Below are positions 1 through 17,354 of a stretch of DNA of 17,354 nucleotides, piece after piece. Numbering within the stretch: position 1 is the stretch's first letter; each line of letters opens with the position of its first letter. The stretch lies in assembly GCA_963787445.1 (NCBI GenBank), contig CAWBCT010000009.1:1-17354 (forward strand). The letters run 5' to 3'. The translations under genes were made by a program, and so were the position numbers. The DNA comes from an uncultured archaeon. GTDB lineage: Archaea > Micrarchaeota > Micrarchaeia > Micrarchaeales > CABMGC01. The notes beneath the pieces were generated by a model. That model saw only the letters and a list, made by a program, of their open reading frames with translations. It ran no database searches and was not told where the DNA came from.

Positions 1-2
1 TA

Positions 3-395
3 TTATTTTTCTTTGTTGTATGCATTGAAGTAATGCTTTCCGCGGAGTATGAACTGCTGCTCTATCTTCTTAGGCGAGAAGTACCTATTAGTGAACTCCA
101 CCACCTTCTCCCTGCTGTAGGCCTTGCAGCTGTATACGTCTATGCTTATGAAATTCTTCCTTGATAGGGTGTGAATAACTATCGATGAATCTGCGAGAGG
201 CACCCACCCGCTGAGACCAGCCTTGTCTGGGAAGGATTTCCTGTCGGTCCTGAAGATTGAGGGAGGGGCCTGCTTCTTCATGCCTATGAAGTCGACTAGG
301 TTGTCCAGATAGCTGTAGCAGTGGTCGAGCTCGCCGCACACCTCGGGCTTGCAGTCGTAGCAGTCGAGCAGCAGCTCGTAGCCGAACACCCTCAA
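3..395 (-). CDS. speD: S-adenosylmethionine decarboxylase family (pyruvoyl-dependent) proenzyme
   Basis: G-x-E-LLLD N-terminus, GLSGWVPLADSSIVIHT (family G.S...L.ESH...HT) and ISIDVYSCK with the conserved Cys. The start is uncertain: TTG at 395, with an out-of-frame ATG at 421. Confidence 0.8.
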   Translation of the reverse strand: MRVFGYELLLDCYDCKPEVCGELDHCYSYLDNLVDFIGMKKQAPPSIFRTDRKSFPDKAGLSGWVPLADSSIVIHTLSRKNFISIDVYSCKAYSREKVVEFTNRYFSPKKIEQQFILRGKHYFNAYNKEK

Positions 396-477
396 CTGCT
401 TAGCTTTCTTGGCCGTGCCATCACAGAAAGAATAGAGAGCCCTAAACTTAAATAGCTTGGGCTTTCCTTTCGGATCC

Positions 478-699
478 CTAACCCAATATTTCTATTACCT
501 TGTCCCTGCTAGTGGTGCCTTTTATTATCTTTATGTTCGCCTTTTTCACATTGAAATGTGATGAGAGGGTGGCGATAACGGCAATGTTTGCTCGACCCTC
601 CATCGCTTTTTCTCTAATTTTGAGTTTGTAGCTTACAGGGGTCAGCTTCTCCAGCGTTTCGACTTTGGAATTGGGAACTACTCTTAAGTTTATTATCAT
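478..699 (-). CDS. DUF167/YggU family protein
   Basis: RVVPNS...EKAMEGRANIAVIATLS.HF.V....I.II.G.TSRDK matches the DUF167 pattern; 73 aa. Confidence 0.9.
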   Translation of the reverse strand: MIINLRVVPNSKVETLEKLTPVSYKLKIREKAMEGRANIAVIATLSSHFNVKKANIKIIKGTTSRDKVIEILG

Positions 700-753
700 C
701 TCAGCATCTTGTGTGTAGTTTTACTAAACTTTAAGACCTGCAAGAGATATAAG

Positions 754-1554
754 TCAAGGAAGCATTTTCTCCCTTCGTATCAGCCTGTCTGAGAGCGCAA
801 GGAGCAGCAGCGCCACGAAGAGTATTATGACTGCCTGGCCAAACTCCACGAGTATCGCAGTGCCAAAGGAGAACACGAATGGGATGAAGTATCCGGGTAT
901 CACTCCGACCAACCCGAGGCTCACGGCAAGCGGCTGGTTGCCTCCGGCCCTGTTCTTCTGAAGTACGCTGAACGTCATCATCATTGTTATGATGAAGGCC
1001 ACCGTTGATACTGCTATAAGCGCGCCGATGCCCAGGATAATCAGCATTATTGGCAGGTAGGTTGTTCCGAAGCTCGCAAAGGAGTACAGCAGGTTCAGAG
1101 CCCCGAAAGTCAGCAAATAAGACGCCGCTATCAACAGGGCGGCCTTCAGGTATCGTGCGTATATGTCACGCTGGCTCATCCCCAACGAGATGAGATACTC
1201 AAGGACACCGTTGTTCTTGTCATAAACGAACAAGATCACCATCGGGGTTGTCAGCATCAGCATCGGCATCACGGTGAACGGGACTGCGAGCAAAGGCAGG
1301 CCCAGGCTGCTGTTGGCGCCTGTCTCGGCGCTCATGATCGCGCCGATATTTACGCCATGGCTTGAAGAGTTTGTAGAGTTTGAAGGGTTTGAAAGGTTGG
1401 TGTAAGTGGGGCTGAGAAAAAGGAGCACTCCGAGCCCTATGATTATCGCTATTGCAATGTAGAACTTATTGATGCCCACGGCCCTCTTTGCAGTGACTAT
1501 TATCTGGTTTTCCTTGAGCTCTACGCCCTTGCCCTCATTTTGTGGTTTTGCCAT
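754..1554 (-). CDS. ABC-2 type transporter permease
   Basis: About 6 hydrophobic segments and YDKNNGVLEYLISLG (EkexGtlE-like motif); start overlaps the stop of the upstream ATPase. Confidence 0.8.
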   Translation of the reverse strand: MAKPQNEGKGVELKENQIIVTAKRAVGINKFYIAIAIIIGLGVLLFLSPTYTNLSNPSNSTNSSSHGVNIGAIMSAETGANSSLGLPLLAVPFTVMPMLMLTTPMVILFVYDKNNGVLEYLISLGMSQRDIYARYLKAALLIAASYLLTFGALNLLYSFASFGTTYLPIMLIILGIGALIAVSTVAFIITMMMTFSVLQKNRAGGNQPLAVSLGLVGVIPGYFIPFVFSFGTAILVEFGQAVIILFVALLLLALSDRLIRREKMLP

Positions 1555-2423
1555 TACTTACCACCATCACCAAACAGTTCCTGAAGGGGATTGTCGAGCT
1601 CCTTCATCTCCGTAACAAGTATGCCCTTTTCAATTATCTTTCTTAGGGCAAGGCCTGCCTCTTCTGGCTTCGATACGTTGAGCACGTAGTAGCCGCTGCT
1701 GTCCTTCTTCGCGTCAACGATCTTCGTGATGTCCTTGGAGGCCTTTATCCCCACTCTATAATCCTTCGACCGGACGTTCGCAATCTTGTCAAACAGAGCC
1801 AGCTTGCCATCCTTTATCAGTATAAGATTCATGCCTATGTCAGTGGCTTCGTAAAGATTGTGCGAAGAGTAAAGTACCAGCTTATCTTTGCTAAGTTTCA
1901 GTATGAGATCCCTTATCTCCTTGGAAAGGCCGGGATCGAGGTTTGCAGTCGGTTCGTCAAGCAGGTAGACGTCCCTGTCCTTGAGGAAGACCTTTGCTAT
2001 GGACACCCTCTTCTTCTGGCCCTGCGAAAGATCTATCACCCTCTTGTCCCGCAGTTCATTGAGGCCTAGCAGATCGATTGCCTTCTCCGGATCTCCCCCT
2101 TCCATCCCGGCATAGAACCTAAGTGCATTATATACTGTCATCTCCTCCGGGAGCGCATTGTAGTGCGAGAGGTAGTTTATGTTGCTTCTAAAATCATTTG
2201 AGGATTTTATGTCCTTTCCATCAAGAAGTATCCTGCCCGAGATGGGCTCCAGTATGCCCGCTATTGTCCTGAAAAGCGTAGTCTTTCCCGCACCGTTAGG
2301 TCCAAGTACAACATATACGGATGATTCCTTTGCAGTGAAGCTGATGTTATGCAATACTGGCTTGCCATTGTAGCCCGAGTCAACGTTATCCAATTCAAGC
2401 GTATGCAAAAAGACACCAGACAC
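1554..2423 (-). CDS. ABC transporter ATP-binding protein (CcmA/multidrug exporter-like)
   Basis: Walker A GPNGAGKTT, signature LSQGQKKR, Walker B LLDEPT, H-loop SSH. The real start may be the TTG at 2408. Confidence 0.95.
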   Translation of the reverse strand: MSGVFLHTLELDNVDSGYNGKPVLHNISFTAKESSVYVVLGPNGAGKTTLFRTIAGILEPISGRILLDGKDIKSSNDFRSNINYLSHYNALPEEMTVYNALRFYAGMEGGDPEKAIDLLGLNELRDKRVIDLSQGQKKRVSIAKVFLKDRDVYLLDEPTANLDPGLSKEIRDLILKLSKDKLVLYSSHNLYEATDIGMNLILIKDGKLALFDKIANVRSKDYRVGIKASKDITKIVDAKKDSSGYYVLNVSKPEEAGLALRKIIEKGILVTEMKELDNPLQELFGDGGK

Positions 2424-2505
2424 GATACATGCTCGTTTAAAGCTTTTAGTTGCATGCTAAAGATGCATGTCTGCCAGCCACGTGATAAATGAGGAGAAGG
2501 TGAAC

Positions 2506-2519
2506 AGTGGACTCGGCGG
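2506..2519 (-). repeat. tRNA-Ala-like 3'-end fragment, copy 1 (putative att remnant)
   Basis: AGTGGACTCGGCGG; the minus strand reads CCGC-CGAGTCC-A-C, i.e. T-stem 3' half, acceptor 3' half with U70, and A73. The 11-bp core is shared with 3331 and 5028. Confidence 0.65.
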
Positions 2520-2615
2520 ACTTCCGTATTTGAGTACGTTGTACTAACACGTGCATAAACGGACAAACACCATTAGAATATAGTTTTCATTCGGGGTACC
2601 ACACAAAAATATATT

Positions 2616-2966
2616 CTATCTGCTTTTATAGCCAAAACGTCTTTCATATTCTTTATGAGAGAACCATTCTAATAGAATGGAAACAATTTCTACATCAGAA
2701 CCTTGAAGAGTATAAATCAAACGCCATCCATTTGGCAAGTCGTATTTCCTAAGGTTTGTAATGGAAAACTGTTGTAAGTATGTCTTAGGCCAGAGTTTAC
2801 TTGGTAACTTTATTCCTATTAGAGGATTTTCCTTTAAGTCGTCTATAGCCCTCTGTATGTAAGATGCCAGTTCCTTCTCTTCGAACTTGCCAGACTTTAA
2901 CTCTAAGAAAGAGTTGTAGAGTGATTGGTCTATAAATACAACTTTCTTTATTCTATCACTTTTCAC
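2616..2966 (-). CDS. RelE/ParE-superfamily toxin-like protein
   Basis: 116 aa with AIDDLKENPLIG...LRKYDLPNGWRLIYT...VSILLEWFSHKEY, typical RelE-fold spacing; GTGA overlap with the upstream small gene. Confidence 0.7.
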   Translation of the reverse strand: MKSDRIKKVVFIDQSLYNSFLELKSGKFEEKELASYIQRAIDDLKENPLIGIKLPSKLWPKTYLQQFSITNLRKYDLPNGWRLIYTLQGSDVEIVSILLEWFSHKEYERRFGYKSR

Positions 2967-3247
2967 ACAATCACGCCTTCCTTCCTTATCTTTTCGGCAA
3001 GTTTAGGGTTCCAGAGCCATGTGATTGTTTTATCCTCTTCGACTATTATCTTGCCTGAATATTCTAGATAATCAAGAATGGTTACAAAGGTAGTCCACAT
3101 AACTTTCTTAGGAAGTAGATGCCATATTTGCGTTATTGTCTTGTCGCTTTTATATTTGTACAGTGCCTTTTCCACCATTAATATGGTGTCCAATCGTGGC
3201 AATCTATCTAAGTTCCTAGGTTTGAATTCCATTAGTTCCTTTTCCAC
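2963..3247 (-). CDS. putative antitoxin / small winged-HTH DNA-binding protein
   Basis: 94 aa; TITQIWHLLPKKVMWTTFVTILDYLEYSGKIIVE resembles a wHTH; translationally coupled upstream of the RelE-like gene. Confidence 0.6.
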   Translation of the reverse strand: MEKELMEFKPRNLDRLPRLDTILMVEKALYKYKSDKTITQIWHLLPKKVMWTTFVTILDYLEYSGKIIVEEDKTITWLWNPKLAEKIRKEGVIV

Positions 3248-3255
3248 TTAATCAA

Positions 3256-3287
3256 CTGATAAATATATCAGATGATAAATATATAAA
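3256..3287 (-). promoter_or_regulatory. TATA box plus candidate autoregulatory operator of the TA operon
   Basis: TTTATATA (minus strand, 3280-3287); direct repeat TGATAAATATAT at 3257-3268 and 3273-3284; palindrome CTGATA-AATA-TATCAG at 3256-3271. Confidence 0.55.
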
Positions 3288-3328
3288 CTTTTGGTTGGAG
3301 AGTCAGAACCGCTTCTTCGTAAAATAAA

Positions 3329-3341
3329 AGTGGACTCGGCG
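3329..3341 (-). repeat. tRNA-Ala-like 3'-end fragment, copy 2 (putative att remnant)
   Basis: AGTGGACTCGGCG, identical to 2506-2518; intergenic. Confidence 0.65.
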
Positions 3342-3563
3342 TATGTATCCAACTGAGTTCACTGTACAAGATTATGGTGGCTTTCTTATGTTAATTTAGC
3401 TTTTAACGAAAGATAAAAAGGCCCTGCAGTAAGACGACGGTTATATATTTGATTTCGGTTTAAGAACATTATGGACTATGGGGCAAAGTTTGAACCAAAA
3501 GGTAACAGAATTATTCATGGTACAGGATTACTTAATTAACATGCCTCTAAAGTTCTTATCAGA

Positions 3564-4892
3564 GTGTTGCCGATGGAGAAGAACAAATTAATCAGTATTC
3601 CAGTAGCAACTGCTGTGGGGCTAGGAGCCATAATCGGCGCAGGGATATTCGTACTTAGCGGCACTACTATAGCATTAGCCGGAGCCGATGCCCTCTTCGC
3701 ATTCGTAATAGTAGGGATTGTGGCTCTGATACTTGCCTTTGAGCTTGGCGAACTCAGCTCCCTCATGCCTAATGAAAAGGGTGCATCATATTCGTACACG
3801 TATAAGGCATTCGGAAGCAGGGTGGGGTTCATAACAGGTATATTCAGGTACCTCAGCCTTGCCATTTCTATCTCCGTGGTCTCGTTGGGTTTCGGGGCCT
3901 ATCTTGCGAGCATTCTTGGAATGTCCGTAAACGCCTATTCGATACCATTCGGAATAGTTCTTATAGGGATACTTTCAGCTGTAAACCTTATTGGAGTTAA
4001 AAAAGCCGCCGAAGCTGATTCAGTCCTTGTTGTGATAAAAATATTGATTCTCTTAATATTCATAGGCTTTGCAATCGTGGTTGCGCTGGCGGATCCATCG
4101 TCTACTGCGTCGCATTTCGCTTTCAGTGCATCCACGGGAAGTCTCAGTGACATCTTCGTGGCAGGCATTGCCATAATCTTCGCCTATTCGGGCTTCCAGT
4201 CCATAGCCAGCATATCTGGAAGGATAAAGGGAGGTGCGACTGGGGCTTCAAAAGCCCTAATCGCGGCTGTGTTGATAAGCTTAGTGCTATACGTGCTGGT
4301 AGTGTTTGGATTGCTGCTGCTTCAACCGGCATCGGCATACACGATCTCGGCAGACCCGTTGACTTCCGCATTGGCCGGCACTAGCTCATCCTCATGGCTT
4401 TTGATCCTTGTAGGCATTGGTGCACTGATAGCGACAGCATCAGCAACACTTGCTTCAATATTGACCGCTTCAAGATCAATCTACCAGATGAGTGCTGATG
4501 GTCTGCTCCCAAAGATACTGATGAAATTCAACAAGGATAAGGGCACTGCAGAAAACGGTGTAATCATATCTGCAGTGATAGGGGTTGCCATGTTATTTGC
4601 AGGAAACATATACATCATAGTCTCCATAGTTACTTTCAGCCTAATGTTCGACTATCTGCTTTTAGGATTTGATATCATTCACTTCAGGAGGCAGGGCCGC
4701 AAACCAAGCTTCAGAATGCCATTCTACCCATACCTGCCGGTGATAGGCGTAATAATTCTGATAATCTTCTTCGTAAGCCTGCCAACTGAGGTGCTTGCGG
4801 TAGGCATAGCGATGACCGTAGCCTTAGTGCTATTATACCAGTTTCTCAGTAGGTCAAAGAGCAAGAATGGCAAATTTGTAAAGCTGTTTTGA
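3564..4892 (+). CDS. APC-family amino acid/polyamine permease
   Basis: GAIIGAGIF (TM1 motif), ELSSLMP..GASYSY, FAYSGFQ, SRSIYQMSADGLLPK, FRMPFYP; about 12 TM segments. The start is probably the ATG at 3573. Confidence 0.93.
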   Translation: MLPMEKNKLISIPVATAVGLGAIIGAGIFVLSGTTIALAGADALFAFVIVGIVALILAFELGELSSLMPNEKGASYSYTYKAFGSRVGFITGIFRYLSLAISISVVSLGFGAYLASILGMSVNAYSIPFGIVLIGILSAVNLIGVKKAAEADSVLVVIKILILLIFIGFAIVVALADPSSTASHFAFSASTGSLSDIFVAGIAIIFAYSGFQSIASISGRIKGGATGASKALIAAVLISLVLYVLVVFGLLLLQPASAYTISADPLTSALAGTSSSSWLLILVGIGALIATASATLASILTASRSIYQMSADGLLPKILMKFNKDKGTAENGVIISAVIGVAMLFAGNIYIIVSIVTFSLMFDYLLLGFDIIHFRRQGRKPSFRMPFYPYLPVIGVIILIIFFVSLPTEVLAVGIAMTVALVLLYQFLSRSKSKNGKFVKLF

Positions 4893-5027
4893 TAACCTTT
4901 CTTTGCTTTCCAAAACCTACGTTTAGTTAGGGATTCAGACTTATTTGGTGATGGACGTGGAGTACATTCGATTATTCTAGATTCATGATAACGGTCAGAC
5001 GACACGTGAGCGTGGGTTCGGGTTCAA

Positions 5028-5041
5028 TGGACTCGGCGGGA
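5028..5041 (-). repeat. tRNA-Ala-like 3'-end fragment, copy 3 (putative att site)
   Basis: TGGACTCGGCGGGA; the minus strand reads TCCCGC-CGAGTCC-A, the longest fit to a tRNA ...AATCCCGCCGAGTCCA end. Confidence 0.7.
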
Positions 5042-5109
5042 GCCCATACCTTCGCTTCTGATTATCAGGATATATAACGATATATATCTATTCTGATAAA
5101 GCATATTAT

Positions 5110-5634
5110 ATGGACTGGGCTTCTTTCCTGAGCGTTCCTATTGCGCTACTCTTATCATTACTGTTGGCCTTTTGCATATCCTTCATGCGGGCAAGAGGGC
5201 AGATTGATCATGATGAAGATAGCCTCCTCTTCTCGAATCTTGTGGCTGTGGCTTCCATCTTCCTGGGCATAGTCCTATTTTTAATGACCTTAGCCGCATC
5301 GAAAGGAGCAACAGCACTCTGCACTCCACAGACAAGCAGCAGTATAACGAACAACAGCATAGTAGCCCAGAACATGAGCGCGAGGATCAGCGGATGCATA
5401 AGTGGTGTGAGTCCTCTGCTTAGTGCATTAGGCGCCAGCGTAGTGATATACATAGCCGCGCTCTTGATGCTATCCGTAATATTCAGGCCCGTGCTTTACT
5501 CTGACTTTGAGAATAAGAGCCCGCGAGAAAAGTTTGCACGTGGGATGATAATATGGAGTATTTCATTTCTCACAGTAATATCTGCGCTGTTCATGATACT
5601 AATTTTTCTGCTTTACATCACTACAGGTGCTTGA
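5110..5634 (+). CDS. hypothetical membrane protein (4 TM)
   Basis: Four hydrophobic stretches with a Ser/Thr/Asn-rich loop containing two Cys; AT-rich TATA-like region upstream. Confidence 0.7.
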   Translation: MDWASFLSVPIALLLSLLLAFCISFMRARGQIDHDEDSLLFSNLVAVASIFLGIVLFLMTLAASKGATALCTPQTSSSITNNSIVAQNMSARISGCISGVSPLLSALGASVVIYIAALLMLSVIFRPVLYSDFENKSPREKFARGMIIWSISFLTVISALFMILIFLLYITTGA

Positions 5635-5661
5635 ACGTACAAGAGTTTATTCTCCAAGAAA

Positions 5662-6461
5662 ATGCAGTTAAGAAGATTTAAGGAATTAGACCTGGCAAGA
5701 AGCGATTTAAGAGCCAGTATCATCTTACATAAAAACAAGCTTTATCCTCAGTCTATATGGTGTTTGGAGCAGGGAATAGAGAAAACCTTCAAGTTCTTTG
5801 GCAATACGATTGCAGGGTTGGATGATAAATATTACGCCAACAAAGTGAGCCATAAGCCAAGCAAGATTTATCGTGAAGTTTATGACAGACTGGCTAAAGC
5901 TGCCAGAGAAAAGGCCAACATGCAGGCTGGGAGTGACGACCTGAAACAAATTGCAGCTTTATTTAGTCGCCTTCAAGAAGAAAGGGCAGATAGTCTTCAG
6001 AGAAAGGCAGACGATTCTACAGCTATGGATCAGCTCGATATAAGCGATGACAGAAGATTAGGGATATTCATAGAGACGTTCTACAAATTCTTTAAACCTT
6101 TTGAGGAGGGAGAAGGTGGCCCAGCCACCTCAAGGAGATGGACAGATTGCACAAAATCGACATGCAACTTCCCGATAAGGATAGAGAGTATGTAAACGGA
6201 GTTCAGAAGGATACTGCCTTGTGGTACATAGTAAATGAGTTCAATGACTACTCTGAATCCCTGGCAGCATTATCCAGGATTGCAGAAGGACCAGCATCTA
6301 AGAGTAGATATATTAAGAATGGAGAATCACCATTGGATTTGTTCAAGAAAGAGACGCCAGTAGTGAGATATACGCCGAACCTTGTGGCAACAACACTGAA
6401 GATTATATTCGACTTGGAAGAGTTAATGAACGCTTATTATAAGTGGGCAGCATTAAAATGA
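5662..6461 (+). pseudogene. HEPN-domain protein, frameshifted near 6105-6137
   Basis: ORF 5662-6195 begins with the HEPN-like ARSDLRASIILHKNKLYPQSIWCLEQGIEKTFK...VSH. Overlapping ORF 6138-6461 (-1 frame) supplies the C-terminal SRY motif. Confidence 0.6.
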
Positions 6462-6471
6462 GTGATTGCGT

Positions 6472-6645
6472 ATGGTAAACTGTATGTTCGGGGACTGCAA
6501 GCAGCGCGGAGAGTTCAGGTTTGAGGTGCCGAGCCATGAGAAGAACGGAGTTTACTGCGAGGGCCATCTCTCCAGCCGATTGAGGCTTGGACTACAGAAG
6601 GACGGGATCCTGGAAGGAGTCTCGATAAAGATTACGGCGCTCTGA
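6472..6645 (+). CDS. small 57-aa putative zinc-binding protein (not in ORF track)
   Basis: Translated by hand: MVNCMFGDCKQRGEFRFEVPSHEKNGVYCEGHLSSRLRLGLQKDGILEGVSIKITAL*; C-x4-C...C-x2-H; GAGTGA SD-like sequence just upstream, 10 nt after the HEPN stop. Confidence 0.65.
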   Translation: MVNCMFGDCKQRGEFRFEVPSHEKNGVYCEGHLSSRLRLGLQKDGILEGVSIKITAL

Positions 6646-7069
6646 CACTTTGCCATGAGTCAAACTTCCTGACGTGCTCCTCTGGCAACGTGAAAGATAA
6701 GGTATATCTAACGTCCGTGTGAGAAACGGTACCGATGTTATATCCTTGTTGCGGCAATATTTCTTCCCTTGATGCGCTCTTTGAGAACTTGATCTGCTTA
6801 GTAGAGATTGAGAGATGGAATGGTCGCTTTGTCCTCAGTTGCTTTGAGTAATATAGCCATATCTCAGTTAATCCCGCGTCGCCATGTACTTTGAAAGCGC
6901 CAGTATACTCCTTAAGTCCTTTCAGTTTAATTACTACATTTATGCTTGTTGCGCTGCCACCAGACGCATGGCCTAAGCGTCTGTTTGATCTGGAATTATA
7001 AGTCAATCGTCTTTTTACCCAACTCTTATAGAGAACGTCCTCCTTTGGTTTCCAACCGAACAGGCCCAT
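6632..7069 (-). CDS. hypothetical basic protein
   Basis: 145 aa, 4 nt downstream of the nuclease gene on the same strand (operon-like). Confidence 0.65.
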   Translation of the reverse strand: MGLFGWKPKEDVLYKSWVKRRLTYNSRSNRRLGHASGGSATSINVVIKLKGLKEYTGAFKVHGDAGLTEIWLYYSKQLRTKRPFHLSISTKQIKFSKSASREEILPQQGYNIGTVSHTDVRYTLSFTLPEEHVRKFDSWQSVRAP

Positions 7070-7073
7070 CGAG

Positions 7074-7724
7074 TCATTCCTCTTTCACAGCGTCTCCCAG
7101 AGCAAGTTTATCAACATTGATTCGGATTGGTCTAAACTCAATCTTACCTTTGTCAATTACTCGTTCTATGGACTTCTGAGTCGGAGTAAGCGATGCACCT
7201 CCAGTCTTTATATCAATGAATGTTATCTTTGTTACATCCCTCTTCAAAAGGCCCTCGAACGCTATGAGGTCTACTGGCTGAGGGCGGATGAAGCAAATAT
7301 CAAAAGGATTGATTCCAGTATATTTTGTTGCGATCATAGGCAACATCTCTCCAAGACGACCGACGTATTGGGATTTCATTGAGCGCAAAGCTCGTGCAGT
7401 GTGTTCATCGTTAACTTTCTTGTTTGCGAGAAATGTGTTACTTTTGAATGATTTGAGCTCGTCTACTTTACGATTGTATTTGTTTGACCAATCCTTATCG
7501 TATGATTCGAGTTTGTACTTCCACTTCTCTCTTTCTTCCTTGACTTTCGTGTTTCCTTTTGCAATTATTTGCGATGCCTTTGTGAGTATATTATCTGGTG
7601 CGTTTTTCAAGTAGAAAGGAGGTGAATCATGTAGGGATATTATCTCTTCGCAGTTTGGGCATAATATATACAGATTTCTTGCCTCTTTCAAACCCTCTAT
7701 GAAGCTATCTGCCGTATTGCCCAT
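7074..7724 (-). CDS. PD-(D/E)XK nuclease related to archaeal Holliday junction resolvase (Endonuc_Holl-like)
   Basis: SMKSQYVGRLGEMLP...NPFDICFIRPQPVDLIAFEGL...ITFIDIKTGGASLTPTQKSI...I.KGKIEF; N-terminal CPNC and a coiled coil. Confidence 0.85.
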   Translation of the reverse strand: MGNTADSFIEGLKEARNLYILCPNCEEIISLHDSPPFYLKNAPDNILTKASQIIAKGNTKVKEEREKWKYKLESYDKDWSNKYNRKVDELKSFKSNTFLANKKVNDEHTARALRSMKSQYVGRLGEMLPMIATKYTGINPFDICFIRPQPVDLIAFEGLLKRDVTKITFIDIKTGGASLTPTQKSIERVIDKGKIEFRPIRINVDKLALGDAVKEE

Positions 7725-7728
7725 TTAA

Positions 7729-8346
7729 TCAACCATTAAGCGTTGCGTTGCTCGCGATAAAATAATAGGTCGCTGATGCAGGGCTCGCAGGATAGCAAGT
7801 GTAATCTGTCCAGCCATACGTCTTGTTCAACTGAGTTGTGCAATAATACTCGGAGCTATTAGACGGCGGAGTATTCCCCCAATAGTCCGCGGAGCTGCTG
7901 TGGCATGTGCCGTTGATAGCCGCATAGTATCCATAGGCTCCGACTCCACAGTAGTAGAGTACCGAAAGATGGCCAGTAAATAAGTAGGAGCTGCCATACT
8001 GCCAGACTCTATTCGGCTGGTTTGGCAAGACAAGCGGCAGATAATACTGGGTCTGATTGCTGGAAAAGTATTGATACATCTCGTCATTGACTCCGTTTTG
8101 GAGATCGTACAGCTCTGTGTAGTTTAACCCATATAAATCCTCAAGCTCGGCGCGGACTGATATGGTTTTGTTGAGATAGCTCACTGGATTCGCGTCTATC
8201 TGTGGGATACTAACGGCTGACTGAGTAAGCTGAGAGATGCTTGGCAGTTTGCCCGATGCCAGGTTTGAGATTGCCGTTGGATTGCTGTAAAGATAATAGC
8301 CAATGCCGAGCAGCACGATGATAACTATTACTACGCCCCAGTTCAT
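7729..8346 (-). CDS. membrane-anchored secreted protein, possible OB-fold, Cys/Tyr-rich C-terminus
   Basis: N-terminal TM helix, VSIPQIDANPVSYLNKTISVRAEL, four Cys and many N-x-S/T sequons. Confidence 0.7.
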   Translation of the reverse strand: MNWGVVIVIIVLLGIGYYLYSNPTAISNLASGKLPSISQLTQSAVSIPQIDANPVSYLNKTISVRAELEDLYGLNYTELYDLQNGVNDEMYQYFSSNQTQYYLPLVLPNQPNRVWQYGSSYLFTGHLSVLYYCGVGAYGYYAAINGTCHSSSADYWGNTPPSNSSEYYCTTQLNKTYGWTDYTCYPASPASATYYFIASNATLNG

Positions 8347-8422
8347 ACCATCAAATATAGAATAGACCAGAGGGAATAAAAAGATAACCTCACTTTAAAT
8401 AATCGACAAAGGAGATGGAATT

Positions 8423-9028
8423 ATGGCAACAAACCAGAAGAAGTCGCACTTGTGGATAGTCTTGTTCATATTTGCGATAGCCTTTGGATTGTTTGCACCG
8501 CTTCTTGGTAGAGAGATAACAGAATATACAAAGAAGAAGGACTCCGCTGACTTTGAACATGACGAGTACGTGAACGCGATAGTGAATTCGCTGGTATTAG
8601 GATTGATACTTTATGTTGGACTCTTTGTGTTCGGTATTATTTGTTTTGGGTTCGTTGAGCTCGTGTATTTCATAATGTTTGTAGCCTTCTGGATGGCAAC
8701 CAAGAACATAGCGATATCAAAGACAAAGAAGAAGGCGGTTGAGGAGGACAGCACGCACTCTGGGAGGGTTGCGATCTTAGTTGTGTCATCCTTGTCCGTG
8801 CTGGTTCCAATACCTGCTTTGATGGCAGTACTCGGCATGGGCATCTTAATAAAAAAGGATTTGAAGAGGTTTAGTACAGCCCAGTTCGTTCTAACTTGCC
8901 TGATTAGCTTCATGCTGGCGATACTGCTTGATGTCTCATTATTTATAGGGTATAGTCTTATCCTGCTCCTGGCTTACATAGCTATAAGCATCATATTCTT
9001 TATTTGGAAGCGAGAGATTAGAAAGTAA
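8423..9028 (+). CDS. hypothetical multi-pass membrane protein
   Basis: 201 aa, about 6 hydrophobic segments, GGAG SD-like sequence upstream. Confidence 0.7.
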   Translation: MATNQKKSHLWIVLFIFAIAFGLFAPLLGREITEYTKKKDSADFEHDEYVNAIVNSLVLGLILYVGLFVFGIICFGFVELVYFIMFVAFWMATKNIAISKTKKKAVEEDSTHSGRVAILVVSSLSVLVPIPALMAVLGMGILIKKDLKRFSTAQFVLTCLISFMLAILLDVSLFIGYSLILLLAYIAISIIFFIWKREIRK

Positions 9029-9031
9029 GAA

Positions 9032-9745
9032 TTAGGCCTTCGCTTCCAGCCTATCAAGCATCTCCAACTGGCCCGCAGTCTTGAGCTGCTTCTGAATATA
9101 GACGTAGTGCTCGAGCATGTCTTTCCTGGCCCAGCCCATGTAGGCCTGGATGAGCTCGGGAGGGTAGCCCTTGTTTATGAGCATGTTATAGGCCCTGAGA
9201 TGGCGCAGGTTATGCGGAGTGATGCCGTGATCCTCGTAGATGTTCTTATCGTCGGTCATGTTGGCTCTGAAGTTATGCTTGAGCACCTGCGAGAGGTTAG
9301 CTGCTGCCTGATATCCTCCGAGCTTCGCGAACTTCTTGCCCAGGCCACGCTCATCCTGGACTCCGCGCATGATGTCATCCCATCTCTTAGCGTCGTAGCC
9401 TTCCAGGGGCAGGTTTGCCACGCTCTTTCCCCTCTCTCCGAGCACCTTAAAGCCCCTGGATGATCCTCTGTGGTAATCCTCGAGGTGAGCCTTCATCTTG
9501 CTCCTGGAGGGCAGCTCCACGCCACACTCAAGGCACTTGAAGGAGGGGTTTATGAAGTGCTTTTCGTTTATCTTCTCGATGTAGGCGATCCTACGTCCCT
9601 TGTGCACCTTCTCATAAGCTATTATCCTATCGGAGTGCAGGGCCTCGCCGAGCCTGGCCCCTGCAAGGTAGAGGAACAGGAAGAGCTTGGTGAGGATAGT
9701 AGGGTAAGGATAAGACCTTATCTTGCCCTGCTTGTTGGCCTCCAT
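9032..9745 (-). CDS. tyrosine recombinase, catalytic domain only, with inserted C2H2 zinc finger
   Basis: GARLGE (R31), NEK (candidate K62), HNLRH (H178/R181), MGW (W205), HYVY (Y214); C71-x2-C-x12-H-x4-H92. The frame stays open upstream to about 9929. Confidence 0.85.
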   Translation of the reverse strand: MEANKQGKIRSYPYPTILTKLFLFLYLAGARLGEALHSDRIIAYEKVHKGRRIAYIEKINEKHFINPSFKCLECGVELPSRSKMKAHLEDYHRGSSRGFKVLGERGKSVANLPLEGYDAKRWDDIMRGVQDERGLGKKFAKLGGYQAAANLSQVLKHNFRANMTDDKNIYEDHGITPHNLRHLRAYNMLINKGYPPELIQAYMGWARKDMLEHYVYIQKQLKTAGQLEMLDRLEAKA

Positions 9746-9881
9746 ACGCCTGAATCCTGCAACGGCTATGCCCCATATCTCCTTGCTGACGTCGTCAGAG
9801 CCTGCATAGATAGAGGTTATTGTCGTGAGTTTGAGCCTTTGTCTGTCCTCGTTTAAACACCTATATAAACTATAAATATGG

Positions 9882-9947
9882 CCTCTAAAACAGCCTGTTT
9901 TGTCGTCGTTTTGTCGTCGTAAAACAGTCTAACTAGACTTTTAGAGG
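9882..9947. repeat. repeat cluster upstream of the recombinase
   Basis: Tandem GTTTTGTCGTC x2 (9897-9918); inverted CCTCTAAAA (9882-9890) / TTTTAGAGG (9939-9947); TAAAACAG x2; AGTCTA-AC-TAGACT palindrome. Confidence 0.8.
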
Positions 9948-9982
9948 AAGAATGATTTTGTGTGTACAGAAAGTCATTCTTC
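9947..9982. repeat. 13-10-13 inverted repeat (candidate recombination site or hairpin)
   Basis: GAAGAATGATTTT-GTGTGTACAG-AAAGTCATTCTTC; 12 of 13 arm positions are complementary. Confidence 0.8.
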
Positions 9983-10013
9983 AAAACCGCCTACTAGCGC
10001 CGCCATTATCACC

Positions 10014-10419
10014 TTAGCCTATTGGGACCACTATCCCGTCCCACTCTTCATCCTCACTGTCTTTGGCCTTGTCTTTCTTCAGTCTGTACTTCCTGCAAGG
10101 CTTTAGGCTGGGCCACTATTATTCTTGTCCATCTGAAGGTCCATGAACACAATCTCAGAGATAGCACCCTCACTTCTACACGGCCGCTGGGGTATCCTTC
10201 GTATACTCCATGAGAGCGGTTAGGCCTCGCATTCTTCGTTACCTGGTTGTATGCCTTGCCTGTGGAAGTCCTCTGAGGCTCTGAGAATGCATAGCAGTCA
10301 TCCCTGAGCTTAAAGGACGCTGAAACCCTCGGGAAACCCTCTGAAGGTTCTCTGGGGAATTTTTCAGAGAAAAGGCTGGGAATCACCTCTGAGCGATTCT
10401 GCTGCATCTCTCTCGTCAA
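10014..10419 (-). pseudogene. hypothetical gene, probably frameshifted
   Basis: ORF 10054-10419 overlaps the upstream stop (TTGA). A protein-like tail CRKYRLKKDKAKDSEDEEWDGIVVPIG* in another frame ends at 10014. Confidence 0.35.
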
Positions 10420-10628
10420 ACTGTTTCTCTTCCCTGATAAGGGGCTGTTAGACCCTCGGGGCTCGGTGGGCCGATGTCTCGAGCTTCAGAGCCATCTGGC
10501 TTCTCTGAGACCTTCAGAGGTACAACTTGCTCTGAGTCAAGAAGGAATATCACATCGATGGCCTTATCATCTTCGGAGGCCTGAACGCAGAGACAACGAT
10601 CGCTGCCTATTATCTTAACAATCCTCAT
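10416..10628 (-). CDS. hypothetical protein (possibly degraded)
   Basis: 70-aa ATG ORF co-oriented with the element's leftward operon. Confidence 0.4.
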   Translation of the reverse strand: MRIVKIIGSDRCLCVQASEDDKAIDVIFLLDSEQVVPLKVSEKPDGSEARDIGPPSPEGLTAPYQGRETV

Positions 10629-10773
10629 AAATCATTAGCCAGTGATCTCACCGACCGATAGACCCTGTGCTGATCACCAGATAGAGCATTGTCTCTTGGA
10701 GTCGTCTTGACATTTCACGCTCGGCCTTTATTTGAGGTCGCATAGTCTCTCGCCTTAAGTAGCCTTCTCGACC

Positions 10774-11366
10774 TCAGCTTTGATGAAATCCTGGCTTCAG
10801 TTCCATATTCCATTGTCCTTCATAAAAAGTCCTGCATACCATCATCCCATAAACATCATACGAACTCTTTACCGCATGCCAGATAAAGGAAACCGTCCTG
10901 AAGGCCTCAAGCTGCCCTCTTCCTTCATCGCCGCAATACTCCTGGTATGCCGCGTCATCTGGCACGTGCTCATCGCGGAGCTCCTGAATCAGCGCAGACT
11001 TGGGAAGGTATCTATGGCGCTGAGCAGGGCCCTTATCTTGCCCTGGATGGGGAGCTCGGGCGTGGGAGGCTGGGTTATCCTGATGCAGACGTTTCGATTA
11101 AGGGCCAGGGTTATCGGGCAGGCTGGCCCTGGCGCGGTAATGCCCGATTGAGAAGCTCACAGTATTGCCGTTCAGTTCCACGTCATCCATGTTATCCCTC
11201 TTTGAGTCCTTGAGCAGCACCCATGCCGCAATCCCAGAGCCCGCGCCTACCGAAGCCACGCACAGCCGCGCATAATGGCGCTTGTGGCGCTCAAGGCGGC
11301 CCCTGTAGCAGCAAGCGTAAGGCCTGCCGAAAGGGCTGCTATTGCGAGTTTCTTGGAGGTGTTCAT
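10774..11366 (-). pseudogene. multiply frameshifted secreted/membrane protein gene
   Basis: MNTSKKLAIAALSAGLTLAATGAAL (signal/TM-like), then consecutive protein-like blocks in changing frames: GIAAWVLLKDSKRDNMDDVELNGNTVSFSIGHY / NVCIRITQPPTPELPIQGKIRALLSAIDTF / KSALIQELRDEHVPDDAAYQEY. Confidence 0.4.
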
Positions 11367-11437
11367 GGAGTTTTGAACCTCTGAAGTTTGCCCGCTTTGG
11401 CTACTTTGGGCAGTATCTTTAGCCTCTCCTGTTGTTT

Positions 11438-13050
11438 TCATATCGCTACACGAAGGGTTAGTGGAAGTGCCCAAAGTGCCCATCTGAACTTGCTTACCCT
11501 CCTGTTTGCCGCTGTCCTGCTTTGTCCACTTGTATCTGTTTCGCGTTGATTTTGTCTCCTCTTGACATCCAGGCGTATGCCAGAGAAGACTCTGCCCTTG
11601 AATCTTAGTAGCATCTTACCGAAAGACATGCGGGCCCCTCCCTTCAATCTGCCAATCAAGCCAATCGAACAAGTCAGCAAAGTCGCTGTCCTTATTCTCA
11701 AACTCATCGATTATTTGCTGCTTGGGAAGGTACGACTCTGGCCACTTTGAGTAGCAACGCTCAAAGACACCTTCATGCTCTTTGTTTCGGTATCACCCCC
11801 AACATCGTTTTGCAAGTCGTTCGACATTGGTGTCCCGAGACCCGCGTTCTCCATTATGCCTCCGACTACTCTCGCCCACTCTGGGAAGCTTGCGAATGGT
11901 TGGCTGCCAGGCTTCATGCCTTTCTCCACCCAATCTCTGATAAGAGCGTAGATCAGCGCTACAGTATCTCGCTTCTTTTCTCGGCTACCCACTGATGCAG
12001 GTTCGGATTCTCAAACTTTCTGGCGTTAGGATCACAGCGAAGAATAGGTTGATGAAAATGCTCCTCATGCTCGTCAGGAGTGTAGGTGATACCGACATTA
12101 GCGCTTCATTGATATCTCGAGCACGTTGGGATATGTTGCCATTCTATTACTTCCAAGAATCCTGTCGGTAATGACCTCGCTCGTCAAGATAGCCTCAAGC
12201 GCAGCACAATTCAGATACCCTTTATTATTGGCGAGTGCATTCGTAGCATCCGGATGATTACTGCAAGTGGCCAGTATCTTCTTTCTGAACTCTTCGTTGT
12301 CGCATTTCTGCTCGCTCGATATGGCAGGATCTTCTATGGCATTGCCCTCGTATACGAATGCCCGGTATGCCTGCGCAGTAGTCTTTTCCTGCTCGCGCTT
12401 GGTTTGCTGTATAAAATCTAACGGGTGTCCTGGCTGTTTCATGGTTGTATAACTCTCGGCAGTACGGCGTGATCAAGTCCGCAATGGCGTTAGCCCTATC
12501 TTGCTGGCCAACAAAGCAGAACTCCTTGTATATCTCGTTTATCAGAGTTTTGCCATCCTGCAAAGACATATCGAGCCTTACGTCGGGTGCATCGGCTGGC
12601 GTCCAGAATCTCAACTTCTCATCATAGCCTTTCTTTTGGAAACTCAAGTTTCCCATTCTTGAGTAGTGGTTTAGGAACTGTGTAGATTCGTTCTATTATT
12701 GGCAGCTTCGCGATGAATTGGTCGGAGCTCTTAAGGATAGCTGATGCAGAACTTCCGCTAATGCTTTTCTTGATAAAGCCGATTTCCTCGCCGTCTCTTG
12801 AAAGGATTTTTCCAATTATAAAATCGTTCTCTATCATTGTGATGAACGCGTCTTATCTACCGCTCCAGCCCAAGATTTTTGCGTCGTCTCCCTTCTTTCT
12901 TGTTGTTTATGGCTCCATATTTAGTCTGACTATCTCACGTCAGCCAGCGGCGAGGATGGTGTATGGACGTAAGTGGTAGTATTCGCCTATCGACACCGCA
13001 ACGTCGCCTATCGGATTGCCGTCTTTAGGAACCTCTATTCTTGGTTTCAT
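11438..13050 (-). pseudogene. phage/plasmid primase-associated P-loop ATPase (putative replicative helicase), fragmented
   Basis: ATG at 13050; collinear fragments give GYDEK...EFCF...DRANAIADLITPYCR...TPVRFYTANQARAGKD...NEEFRKKILA...LEAILTSEVITDRILGSN...LIRDWVEKG..P...FASFPEWARVVGGIME...FGKMLLRFKGRVFSG, a motif order I recognise from viral primase-linked ATPases. Confidence 0.7.
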
Positions 13051-13063
13051 GTGTTTATAAAGT

Positions 13064-13261
13064 TCATTCAGTCGGTCTGCCTTCACGGGAAACTGCTTGA
13101 TCATCTCGCCAATAACCGCATAATCTCTTGATAAGGCTTCGCGAGAATTGATTCTCAGACAGAAGTGTATCGATATCCTCTCCCTTTTTAAGGGCGTCTC
13201 GAATGTGATTTATGCGCATCACATCCTCGAGTGAACCAGATCGGCCATCATAGCACCTCAA
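13064..13261 (-). CDS. small hypothetical protein
   Basis: 65 aa, overlapping the upstream stop; ends 13 nt before the ATG of the ATPase pseudogene. Confidence 0.4.
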   Translation of the reverse strand: MRCYDGRSGSLEDVMRINHIRDALKKGEDIDTLLSENQFSRSLIKRLCGYWRDDQAVSREGRPTE

Positions 13262-13440
13262 TCCGAACCACCGTAGAAATAGCGATCGCCACTTCTGGGT
13301 ATGGGCTCGGTTGCTTGATGAACAACAAGCCGTCCTGGACGGCAGTTAAGTGCCTTCCCTGCTACGCGGATAAGTAGAGGCCTTATCATTGTAGAGCACT
13401 TTGAGCTTTTTGCCCATATACTCGTTCCATTTTGTTCCAT
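13258..13440 (-). CDS. small hypothetical protein (possibly frameshifted)
   Basis: ATG ORF in the same operon, GAGGAG upstream. Confidence 0.4.
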   Translation of the reverse strand: MEQNGTSIWAKSSKCSTMIRPLLIRVAGKALNCRPGRLVVHQATEPIPRSGDRYFYGGSD

Positions 13441-13458
13441 TTTCCACTTTATCTCCTC

Positions 13459-13692
13459 TTAATCATTCATAATGCTGTTTAGTGCGTAGGCTATGCTTCT
13501 GTCAGAGCTCACGCGGCCCTTGAGCCGTGCAAGGATAGAGGCCTTCTTGATGAAGAGTTGTCGTTGCAGTTTCCTAAGCGAGTCGGCGTAGCGCTGGTCT
13601 GTAAGCTCGGATAGGAACACACGGTCGCGCTCGATTAGCCTGTAAAGTTCACCGCACATCTGCTCGAGTTCTGCCTGGAGTGCCATGATCAT
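13459..13692 (-). CDS. small helical/coiled-coil hypothetical protein
   Basis: Strong GGTGAGG SD; ATGA overlap with the upstream ORF. Confidence 0.65.
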   Translation of the reverse strand: MIMALQAELEQMCGELYRLIERDRVFLSELTDQRYADSLRKLQRQLFIKKASILARLKGRVSSDRSIAYALNSIMND

Positions 13693-13826
13693 GTCCTCAC
13701 CATTTGAACTTGCACTTTAACCTTTAATTTCTCCAGGAATGCCGAGATGAGAGGATCATCCGCGAACTCCTCGGGATGCGTTATGGCCCAGCGCAGCGCC
13801 TTCTTTTCTTCTGGTAATAGGGGCAT
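13689..13826 (-). CDS. 45-aa hypothetical protein (not in ORF track)
   Basis: MPLLPEEKKALRWAITHPEEFADDPLISAFLEKLKVKVQVQMVRT*; starts 3 nt after the RHH stop and its TGA overlaps the next ATG. Confidence 0.6.
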   Translation of the reverse strand: MPLLPEEKKALRWAITHPEEFADDPLISAFLEKLKVKVQVQMVRT

Positions 13827-13829
13827 TGT

Positions 13830-13996
13830 TTAACCTTTTTTCCTGGTGGTAATCTCTGCCGCCTTTTGAATGAGGAATTTTCTGCATAAGGCGGATATCG
13901 AGGAGAATCCCTCTGCTCGAAGCGATCTATCGCTTGGAGCGTTTCCTTATCAAGTGTCAGAGGCATCGTCTTCTCAATCATTTGCTGTTTTGTCAT
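13830..13996 (-). pseudogene. ribbon-helix-helix (CopG-like) regulator with a 1-nt frameshift near 13920
   Basis: MTKQQMIEKTMPLTLDKETLQAIDR / RAEGFSSISALCRKFLIQKAAEITTRKKG*; the joined sequence gives beta strand, helix, G-x-x-S turn, helix; 167 nt, one base short of a full frame. Confidence 0.65.
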
Positions 13997-14091
13997 TTCC
14001 TTTCCCTTTACGTTCAAATTACGCTAAACATATAACAATAGATAACTATATATATCTTGCGTTGAATCTATGTTTAGTTTCCGTTAGTGAT

Positions 14092-15066
14092 ATGATGCCT
14101 ATGAGCGAGAAAAGTGAAAAACAAATGGTCGAGGGTGAGCTGGCGAGACCAGCACAAAACCCACTACTCTTAAGCGAGGACCTTGAGTTATATCCTATGT
14201 CAATCACTCAAGCCCAGTTCGAAGCTCTTCAGATCTTACTCGTAAACAAGCAAAGTAGAACTACCAAATCAATACAGAGAAACATAGAATATAGCTACAT
14301 AACGCATTTCTTAGAGGAGATATTTGAAGAAGTAAATAAAGCAGCAAACAAATTACTTGATGAACGTCGCAGAACCTATGATAAAAAGATATGGTCTTCG
14401 GATAAGAATTACCAAAAAACCGAGGATAAGATATTAGATGAAATAACTAAGAAGCGTTCCGAATTGATAACCGCTGTGATCAAGAAGCACGGAATAACAG
14501 AACCATTATTGAAGAAGGAGATTGATATTTTCATATCCGAGTCGGCCGACTCTGATAACGATGGATTTGCTAAAGATTTTCAGAATTTTAAGAACTTCAT
14601 GCTTACTACGGACAAGTATGGAAACGTTGAGTCAAAGAGAACCAAGGCAGTGAGTGCAATAAATAAGAGCTCAGGGTACAAGATACCAAGTTATGAAACA
14701 ATAAGTAAGGGGCTTTCGAAATTGAAAGAAGATGGATATGTTGATTATCTTAAGAAGGAAGATCAGACGGAAACGGCAGAGATAAGAACCAACGCTTCTG
14801 GCTTGTGGTCTATAGCAGATAACTTTCATAAAGTATGGAATCAAAAAAGACTAAGCATACTCGAGGATTATCAAAAAATTGTGAAGGCCACACTTGACGA
14901 TACCTATCATCCAGTTTATCATCTTGTTGAGAAGTATGGTACGCGAATCTTAGACTTCTACCAAATCAAAATAAGAGAAAGGAGCTCTGAGAGTTTAAGC
15001 CCCGAACCATTATCCTCAGTTTACTTAGAGCATCTTCAAGAAGTATCTCAGTTAGTAAGAGACTAA
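14092..15066 (+). CDS. putative winged-HTH regulator with large insertion
   Basis: SITQAQFEALQILLVNKQSRTTKSI (helices 1-2) ... IPSYETISKGLSKLKEDGYVDY ... GLWSI (recognition helix and wing); divergent from the RHH gene. The real start is probably 14092-14101, not 13870. Confidence 0.65.
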   Translation: MMPMSEKSEKQMVEGELARPAQNPLLLSEDLELYPMSITQAQFEALQILLVNKQSRTTKSIQRNIEYSYITHFLEEIFEEVNKAANKLLDERRRTYDKKIWSSDKNYQKTEDKILDEITKKRSELITAVIKKHGITEPLLKKEIDIFISESADSDNDGFAKDFQNFKNFMLTTDKYGNVESKRTKAVSAINKSSGYKIPSYETISKGLSKLKEDGYVDYLKKEDQTETAEIRTNASGLWSIADNFHKVWNQKRLSILEDYQKIVKATLDDTYHPVYHLVEKYGTRILDFYQIKIRERSSESLSPEPLSSVYLEHLQEVSQLVRD

Positions 15067-15072
15067 CTCGTA

Positions 15073-15777: not shown

Positions 15778-16006
15778 ACTCCTCTATGTAGCCAAGTATG
15801 CTTATCTCATTATCGCATATTATTACTGTGCTTCCAGGTAAGATTAGCATCTCGTCTAACTTTATCGGAGTGTCGATGTATTTATCTATAAGTTTCTTGC
15901 CGTCTTTATCAAGTACAAATACGCCATCGGACTTGTAGTCTAAACCTTCCAGTAGTGCAATCTTGGTAGGAGTATCATATGTCTTTAGAGAAACAAGCTC
16001 AGTCAT
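15758..16006 (-). CDS. small acidic hypothetical protein
   Basis: 82-aa ATG ORF with AT-rich promoter-like upstream region; coupled to 15073-15777. Confidence 0.7.
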   Translation of the reverse strand: MTELVSLKTYDTPTKIALLEGLDYKSDGVFVLDKDGKKLIDKYIDTPIKLDEMLILPGSTVIICDNEISILGYIEEYGDGYL

Positions 16007-16078
16007 GCAATTACCTGTATTTAAACATATTGTAAAGTTTAACGTATATATTTATTTACTTTTCCTTCGCCCTAAGGC

Positions 16079-17260: not shown

Positions 17261-17282
17261 GGATTTATAGTGTCCTCGGCAT

Positions 17283-17298
17283 TATTTAAAGATTTCGG
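17283..17298 (-). promoter_or_regulatory. archaeal BRE/TATA promoter of the integrase (leaderless)
   Basis: Minus strand CCGAAATC-TTTAAATA ending 23 nt before the ATG at 17260. Confidence 0.65.
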
Positions 17299-17354
17299 AT
17301 AAACCGAAGCCCTAAGCGAAATGCAGCAAAAAGCTTGTCGTCGTAATCAAGATT

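Follow-up and report, generated by a model that had tools for sequence, protein, structure and literature searches.

A tandem array of small integrase-less units bounded by tRNA-Ala 3'-end repeats in a Micrarchaeales genome

A 17,354-nucleotide (nt) stretch of DNA from an uncultured archaeon of the order Micrarchaeales (assembly GCA_963787445.1, contig CAWBCT010000009.1; hereafter, the window) contains three copies of a short repeat that matches the 3' end of a tRNA-Ala(TGC) gene and delimits two small gene-carrying units followed by a larger integrase-encoding element, which we call E3. The window is the entire contig C9 of a 19-contig, 1.05-Mb assembly that is 82% complete with 5.4% contamination. 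The interpretation of this locus as an array of cassettes bounded by attachment (att) sites and built by accretion is supported; the three repeats would be att duplications resulting from serial site-specific integration into the tRNA gene at its 3' terminus. We further consider it likely that the small units are non-autonomous cassettes that arose by such serial integration and are comparable to the cis-mobilisable elements (CIMEs) of bacteria.

The 11-mer TGGACTCGGCG is present on the + strand in three exact copies, at 2508, 3331 and 5028 (whole-window search), all of them located between genes according to the list of open reading frames (ORFs) and the sequence. With their flanking matches, the copies are as follows.

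2508 to 2519, + strand: core copy 1, 12 nt that read as the tRNA-Ala(TGC) 3' end in reverse complement, from within the 3' strand of the T-stem through that of the acceptor to A73
3331 to 3341, + strand: core copy 2, 11 nt; 13 nt in common with copy 1 when the preceding AG is included
5027 to 5041, + strand: core copy 3, 15 nt, identical to positions 1-15 of contig C2

Copies 1 and 2 have AGTGGACTCGGCG in common, and copies 1 and 3 have TGGACTCGGCGG. The gene to which they correspond is a tRNA-Ala(TGC) at C2:1-74 on the minus strand, whose 3' end reads ...GGGTTCGAATCCCGCCGAGTCCA, with G3:U70 and A73, and which is matched over 12, 11 and 15 nt by copies 1, 2 and 3, respectively. The first-pass annotation of this DNA had described three intergenic repeats in the same orientation, had read them as a tRNA-Ala 3' end with G3:U70 and A73, and had predicted a minus-strand tRNA-Ala gene just to the right of the window; all of this is borne out, the gene being found on a different contig since the window takes up all of C9. 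ARAGORN calls no tRNA gene within the window itself, and an Rfam search at E<=1 returned nothing there except a spurious miRNA match. A split or partial tRNA with CCA on the + strand at 5000-5041 was considered and dropped, since the minus-strand tRNA-Ala on C2 explains these bases.

That a GC-rich 11-mer has simply recurred by chance, or that the repeats are a conserved regulatory motif with no role in recombination, might be suspected because the reversed pattern used as a control, while mostly giving 0 matches, gave 1-3 in the genomes of some relatives. In dinucleotide-preserving shuffles, however, the 11-mer had a mean of 0.13 matches, with four or more in 0 of 200, so that the observed count was never reached. 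Outside the array locus, i.e., C9 and a near-duplicate in contig C1, the 11-mer occurs in the 1.05-Mb source genome only at C2:2-12, within tRNA-Ala(TGC); the copies lie on the same strand with conserved arms alongside, and Rfam has no match at the repeats. For the three copies in the window this reading is refuted, and we assign it practically no weight. A further copy with one mismatch, at 9357-9367, is inside an integrase-like ORF of 237 amino acids (aa), on the strand opposite to the gene, and is probably due to chance. An SSV-type integrase carrying the att site within its gene was considered for this copy and rejected, since the flanks do not lengthen the match and 0.13 matches are expected per window.

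The assembly has a second copy of the array locus: C1:14959-19982 shares 99.56% identity with C9:1-5026, C1 terminates exactly at the tRNA junction (...GGGTTCGGGTTCA), and C2 starts with the base that follows in C9. Two strains were apparently assembled together, of which one carries the 12-kb element E3 and the other lacks it. Positions 1-5041 are also found at ~100% identity in public contigs of four soil-metagenome runs of one study (X1-X4), with zero depth across nearly all of 5212-17354 in 4 of 4 runs, and past 5041 the contigs of three of them (X1, X2 and X4) read TTCGAACCCGCGACCTTCCGCTTGCAAAGC, i.e., the body of the tRNA. Because the public contigs join 5041 to the tRNA body and lack 5212-17354, the segment 5042-17354 is a recently inserted element; two of these contigs match the C9 haplotype without any difference, which implies that the insertion is recent or reversible. 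In the empty-site form, copy 3 is the tRNA gene's own 3' end, with copies 2 and 1 lying 1.7 and 2.5 kb downstream of the tRNA, and in contig C9 it is the distal att repeat of E3, in agreement with the earlier description of the third repeat as being followed by a cargo and integrase block. The contigs of these runs were at depth 2-7, at which rare forms are invisible and uncovered parts of the window alone are no evidence. Three further runs, X5-X7, share 8-15% of the sequence words of 2400-5400. Among the public contigs of runs X1 and X3, one starts exactly at 3331, and in another the match starts at 2505, preceded by 4 letters that do not match; contigs that end at cores could reflect graph branches caused by variants, or simply low depth.

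Each interval between successive repeats contains a single functional unit, a TA (toxin-antitoxin) gene pair in the first and an amino-acid permease gene in the second, as had been proposed from the sequence; the Pfam matches are in agreement.

2508 to 3341: unit 1, 0.82 kb, ParE/RelE-like TA
2616 to 2966, - strand: ParE/RelE-like toxin, 116 aa (PF05016 ParE_toxin, a marginal 23.8 bits vs a cut-off of 23)
2963 to 3247, - strand: candidate antitoxin, 94 aa, overlapping the toxin start by 4 nt; no Pfam match
3331 to 5041: unit 2, 1.70 kb, APC permease
3564 to 4892, + strand: APC-family amino-acid permease, 442 aa (PF13520 AA_permease_2, E 6.4e-46)
Left of the array: flank with genes for AdoMet decarboxylase, a DUF167 protein and an ABC ATPase (Pfam)

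Homologues of the toxin are encoded in 98 of 248 genomes of the order, and the 94-aa ORF clusters with ORFs found upstream of toxin homologues at three loci of relatives (L020, L022 and L024), i.e., the pairing is conserved; judged by sequence, the pair would qualify as a type II toxin-antitoxin system of the ParE/RelE superfamily. The GC content of the TA unit is 36-38% vs 47-54% in the left flank, and the non-coding DNA at the ends of the window's units amounts to only 83-222 nt each. The two units are transcribed in opposite directions, the TA genes from the - strand and the permease gene from the + strand. Neither unit contains an integrase or a remnant of one (0 of 2; Pfam, and tblastn with five integrases plus an unannotated ORF of E3 at E<=1e-3). 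Both have att repeats of a site-specific integration system as their boundaries. Upstream of the antitoxin gene, a palindrome at 3248-3285 produces inverted self-matches, which are also seen in the TA loci of relatives; it could be the operator of the TA operon.

The cores are accompanied by conserved arms, one to the right of a core copy, in the place of the tRNA body (F), and one to the left of the next core (P').

2519 to 2548, + strand: F1-type arm of unit 1, GACTTCCGTATTTGAGTACGTTGTACTAAC, fitting the F1 consensus
3297 to 3330, + strand: P'1-like arm closing unit 1 on the right, …CTTCTTCGTAAAATAAAAG; it aligns with P'1 arms at loci L011, L014, L021 and L029
3342 to 3371, + strand: diverged F1-like arm of unit 2, …CTGAGTTCACTGTACAAGA

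The F1 consensus, gAC.TC...tGAGTacGaTgTACaAAc, is drawn from 15 sites, among them both copies in the window and a 0.85-kb unit at the tRNA-Ala(CGC) gene of the source genome. A second right arm, F2 (TCCYTGCAG...TGCAGTCCCAT), was found at 7 sites. On the left side, the P'1 consensus from 12 sites is G.GATTCATACC...CTTCCTCGTAAAG.GAAAA, and the P'2 arm reads GGAAGTCCAT...CCACGAAGGAAATGTTA. The arms are paired, F1 with P'1 and F2 with P'2, and this is true alike of the small units and of two integrase-bearing elements of relatives, L029 and L027. A hairpin located downstream of intact tRNA-Ala genes also precedes the outermost core copies in several relatives, exactly as serial integration predicts. 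At L020 (G015:C3), the hairpin at the core at 989 is in the middle of the array and not at its outer edge, which simple serial integration fails to explain. The F1 pattern matched nine loci in metagenome contigs, of which one (L095, at a contig end) is a true F1 site and the others are chance matches within genes; viral contigs gave no match to this pattern.

Arrays of this kind are not confined to the source genome. The 11-mer occurs in 140 of 201 genomes of the same order (0.4-1.4 Mb), from which the reversed control pattern is mostly absent, and among the 150 of 272 matches listed, to which our counts of arrays refer, same-strand pairs within 10 kb are found in at least 16 relatives (17 with genome G006). 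Nineteen regions were examined, a selection that favours well-assembling loci; two of them, L025 and L026, represent a single array found in sister genomes, and the G006 region, L019, was dropped as an array because it has two tRNA-like genes instead. Counting exact cores and two one-mismatch cores with clear arms, the relatives have 21 small intervals of 0.56-1.97 kb at tRNA-Ala genes and three larger ones of 4.5, 4.6 and 8.8 kb. The same tblastn search detected no integrase remnant in any of the 21 small intervals. The 4.6- and 8.8-kb elements have arms of the same types and encode integrases 33-40% identical to that of the window: L029 combines F1 and P'1 with a 394-aa integrase, and L027 combines F2 and P'2 with a 399-aa one. 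No integrase-bearing element with F1 arms was found in the source genome. Since many tRNA-Ala genes are at contig ends, large elements are probably under-counted. The cargo of the relatives' arrays, of which 30 of 66 ORFs of at least 60 aa were scanned, includes TA-type genes (ParE/RelE pairs homologous to that of the window, PIN, PIN_2, Fic and DUF2283), enzymes (PfkB, radical SAM, AlkZ-like glycosylase, UbiA, pyroglutamyl peptidase and RibD_C) as well as SLOG, PCC, ArsR and an IS200 transposase. At L018, L019 and L029, several tRNA-Ala genes seem to be intron-bearing or truncated and are not called by ARAGORN. In G006, 1.7 kb separate the two tRNA-like copies, and an AAA_14/DUF4143 ATPase gene lies in this interval.

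Comparisons among relatives point indirectly to movement of the units in their small form. A unit carrying a Fic gene is present in three genera with 85% nucleotide identity over 1.06 kb (87.5-90.5% for the protein) and an identical right junction, with flanks that are barely alignable among the three. A chromosomal ORF located across the tRNA-Ala(CGC) gene and used for comparison is 44% identical between two of the Fic genomes and 56% within a genus. The Fic unit is next to an intact tRNA-Ala(CGC) in one genome and to a ~45-nt fragment of tRNA-Ala(TGC) in the two others. A PIN toxin is 90% identical between two genera. At L016 and L017, which belong to two species of one genus, the arrays share 92% identity between core 1 and a point 38 nt beyond core 2; unit 2 then has unrelated cargo between the same arms, and homology is back for 88 nt ending at core 3. 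The first-pass annotation had expected homology breakpoints of relatives to fall at the repeats, as they do here, and had regarded decayed integrase remnants between repeats as the sign of eroded islands, for which the 23 small units of the window and the relatives give no indication.

These observations are consistent with the following scenario. A small unit would consist of a core, a right arm (F1), one gene or operon and a left arm (P'), followed by the next core, and each new arrival at the tRNA gene would displace the older units outward. The units would be non-autonomous derivatives with working att sites that rely on the integrase of an incoming element. There are two ways in which such an integrase could serve them: it may act on the cassette in trans, or, alternatively, the cassette may be excised together with its neighbour by recombination between the outer cores, i.e., by accretion and cis-mobilisation. 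TA cargo may aid persistence of the units. Mobilisation in trans by one of the two recombinases near the repeats, which had been suggested for this locus, is not supported by the data: the contigs of the four low-depth runs contain no excision joints, and the array exists without the 12-kb element and thus without any nearby integrase.

Several facts weigh against the cassette interpretation as we have formulated it. It offers no account of how cargo comes to lie between the arms. The joint between the right end of C9 and C2 is inferred. The arm of copy 2 is diverged, and the strict F1 pattern is present in just 8 of 248 genomes. The TA genes of unit 1 are widespread without arms, with a tRNA-Ala core within 1.5 kb in 3 of the 29 best loci, and the homology of this TA locus to relatives ends short of the arms. 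Some exact 11-mers in relatives may be due to chance, for instance a core that is inside an ORF (L012, at 5049). Both units of the window are the same in haplotypes C1 and C9, with no polymorphism observed, and the X1-X4 contigs, at depth 2-7, contain neither excised circles nor deletion joints at the repeats. Finally, a member of the integrase family is present in the assembly of only 4 of the 16 array-bearing relatives, so that most arrays may be immobile at present.

The last two points are also what one would expect if the small units were fossils of large islands that lost the integrase and most of the cargo by deletion, never were transferred in small form and are immobile. This is an unlikely account, though one to be taken seriously: streamlined genomes delete DNA fast while TA genes resist deletion, and TA-type cargo is common in the units. 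Large integrase-bearing elements with the same arms, from which such fossils could derive, are known (L027 and L029), and for archaea there are descriptions both of tandem integration and of integrases lost once the element had integrated (in PMC8371274 and PMC6563490). Deletion, however, would have had to leave both arms intact and to remove the integrase without a remnant in 23 of 23 small units. It also does not account for an integrase-less Fic unit that is shared by three genera at 85% nucleotide identity between flanks that barely align and that is found at two different tRNA-Ala genes, or for a pair of genomes from the same genus that differ by whole units changing at the cores.

It was also proposed that the locus is an integron analogue based on tRNA att sites. 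As an analogy, this holds for the architecture: like chromosomal integron arrays, the locus is composed of small one- or two-gene units (0.6-2 kb), each with its own recombination site at a conserved boundary, that have diverse cargo and frequently encode TA modules; moreover, integrons have been reported in archaeal metagenome genomes (PMC9668308). A true integron-like platform, in which a resident integrase would act on folded single-stranded sites to collect promoterless cassettes behind one promoter, is disfavoured, and we consider it very improbable. The locus has no IntI, attI, attC-like hairpin or common promoter, and it has neither a resident integrase with attI at the head of the array nor a series of co-oriented promoterless cassettes: the P'-core-F1 junctions fold no better than shuffled single-stranded DNA (z +0.25 to -1.4; 8 folds, 4 junctions on both strands), the array in C1 and X1-X4 has no adjacent integrase, the integrases that do occur are element-borne and lie beside many different tRNAs, and the units of the window are on opposite strands, the TA unit having a possible operator palindrome of its own. 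Recombination at this locus is presumably double-stranded, attP x attB, at the tRNA gene.

The closest known counterparts of the att-bounded cassettes are the CIMEs and the accretion at tRNA sites described in Streptococcus (Pavlovic 2004 and Bellanger 2011, as presented in PMC5704250). There, as here, integration genes are lost with attL and attR kept, and the remaining elements form a tandem stack together with an incoming integrase-bearing element at a tRNA 3' end; according to the same source, composite excision can mobilise them. Unlike the streptococcal CIMEs, the units described here reside in an archaeal host whose integrase family is archaeal and has a zinc ribbon, have a much smaller size of 0.56-2 kb, with room for one gene or operon, and recur across genera with conserved arms of 30-40 nt; in a further difference from CIME systems, no conjugation genes were found. 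Tycheposon islands of Prochlorococcus (bioRxiv 10.1101/2020.12.28.424599) are, as described there, similar in the streamlined genome, in repeated integration at one tRNA that displaces older elements, in scattered partial tRNAs and in niche or defence cargo. However, tycheposons carry integrase and replication modules, and their remnants are reported to have fragmented integrases and unclear boundaries, whereas the units here are cleanly bounded, possess both arms and are free of integrase fragments. Archaeal elements integrated in tRNA genes, such as those of Thaumarchaeota, share with the present ones a tyrosine integrase, a tRNA 3'-end target, a direct repeat, tandem re-use of the site and occasional loss of the integrase (PMC6563490; PMC8371274). 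The smallest thaumarchaeal cryptic element given in PMC6563490 is 2.6 kb long and has an integrase by definition, while the units here are ~1 kb long and integrase-less; the att identity is 11-15 nt here vs 44 bp in an example in PMC9897764. Our search of the literature, in the passages that it covered, found no account of ~1-kb integrase-less units with conserved arms stacked at archaeal tRNA genes.

Archaea with small genomes are thought to be host-dependent and to have few routes of gene gain. It is possible, although we put this forward only tentatively, that the arrays belong to an order-wide tRNA-att cassette system, in which minimal recombinase-less units (an arm of ~30 nt, one gene or operon and an arm of ~35 nt) are captured where tRNA genes have their 3' ends, stacked, swapped and passed between genera by tRNA-specific integrases of larger elements. 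If so, the system would be an archaeal functional counterpart of integron arrays that operates by double-stranded attP x attB recombination, and it would be a principal way for these reduced genomes to exchange single genes. Units of ~1 kb that move between tRNA sites and genera would provide a means to gain and lose single genes, and the cargo open to such exchange would comprise TA modules, Fic, transporters and small enzymes. The idea of accretion and cis-mobilisation would then reach from the integrative and conjugative elements (ICEs) of bacteria to archaea, at a much smaller scale. The compact site, an 11-nt core with two arms of 30-40 nt, offers a defined substrate for studying how archaeal integrases recognise a tRNA end, and for genome annotation it follows that mobile units can be delimited by tRNA-end repeats too short to be picked up by tRNA finders.

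The remainder of the window is occupied by E3, which has the features of a tRNA island: the target tRNA is intact, a distal direct repeat is present, an integrase gene is near the tRNA-proximal end and the empty site is known.

5042 to 17354: E3, at least 12.3 kb, reaching the contig end; absent from the X1-X4 contigs that hold 1-5041
9032 to 9745, - strand: tyrosine-recombinase ORF, short or partial, 237 aa, with matches only in the C-terminal catalytic part
16079 to 17260, - strand: tyrosine integrase, 393 aa (PF00589, E 7e-23), its start 94 nt from the contig end
17328 to 17354, + strand: last bases of the contig, ...CTTGTCGTCGTAATCAAGATT, like the 'TGTCGTCnTAA' arm left of the tRNA-Ala core in L015, L016 and L017

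The terminal 27 positions are probably the tRNA-proximal arm of E3, a resemblance judged by eye and unscored. E3 further encodes a Holliday-junction-resolvase-like nuclease and many small ORFs. When 10 E3 ORFs were compared with PHROGs, only the short integrase was matched and no viral hallmark genes were seen, which gives no grounds for classifying E3 as a virus or a plasmid. The 398-aa ORF at 13870-15066, probably one of the recombinases meant in the first-pass annotation, has no Pfam or PHROGs match. At 9898-9930, ~155-185 nt upstream of the 237-aa integrase-like ORF, there is a tandem TTTTGTCGTCG TTTTGTCGTCG TAAAACAG that resembles the arm at the tRNA-Ala cores of L015-L017 and the right end of the window; E3 may be two elements fused, with a decayed inner core.

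Compared along its full length, the 393-aa integrase has 40% identity with the integrase of L029 and 33% with that of L027. Members of its family are encoded in 70 of 248 genomes from the order and, in the source genome, on C9 alone (tblastn). A tRNA gene adjoins the integrase gene in 26 of the 29 best loci, ~70-160 nt from the gene start; the tRNAs concerned are Ala (6), Gly (4), Thr (4), Glu (3), Val (3), Pro (3), Asn (2) and Gln (1), and these eight amino-acid specificities indicate a tRNA-targeting family with sub-specificities. Protein Atlas matches of the integrase are archaeal tyrosine integrases, some with zinc ribbons; a scan of genome contigs with the integrase gave merely three distant bacterial matches, and viral contigs two weak ones.

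Other tRNA genes of the source genome (G000) also have small units next to them. At C5:86964-87885, a 0.85-kb unit at tRNA-Ala(CGC) with an F1-like arm and copies of the tRNA end carries VapB and PIN genes; at C14:18871-19850, a 0.85-kb unit at tRNA-Arg(CCT) with a DUF2283 gene is bounded by a ~55-nt tRNA copy; and at C11:7790-9243, a 1.3-kb AbiEii unit has a degenerate tRNA-Arg(CCG) on one side and an intact one on the other. Complete tRNA-Thr(TGT) copies are found at C4:4395-4466 on the minus strand and at C4:12024-12095 and C10:19164-19235 on the plus strand, with a 12-nt end copy at C5:10451, which suggests further element-borne or duplicated tRNA genes. A second, Xer-like recombinase family (283 aa) adjoins tRNA-Ala in relatives, at L028:3748-4599 and L029:4505-4897, one copy being intact and one an N-terminal fragment, and it has two homologues in the source genome, at C14:32487-33236 and C17:104-880.

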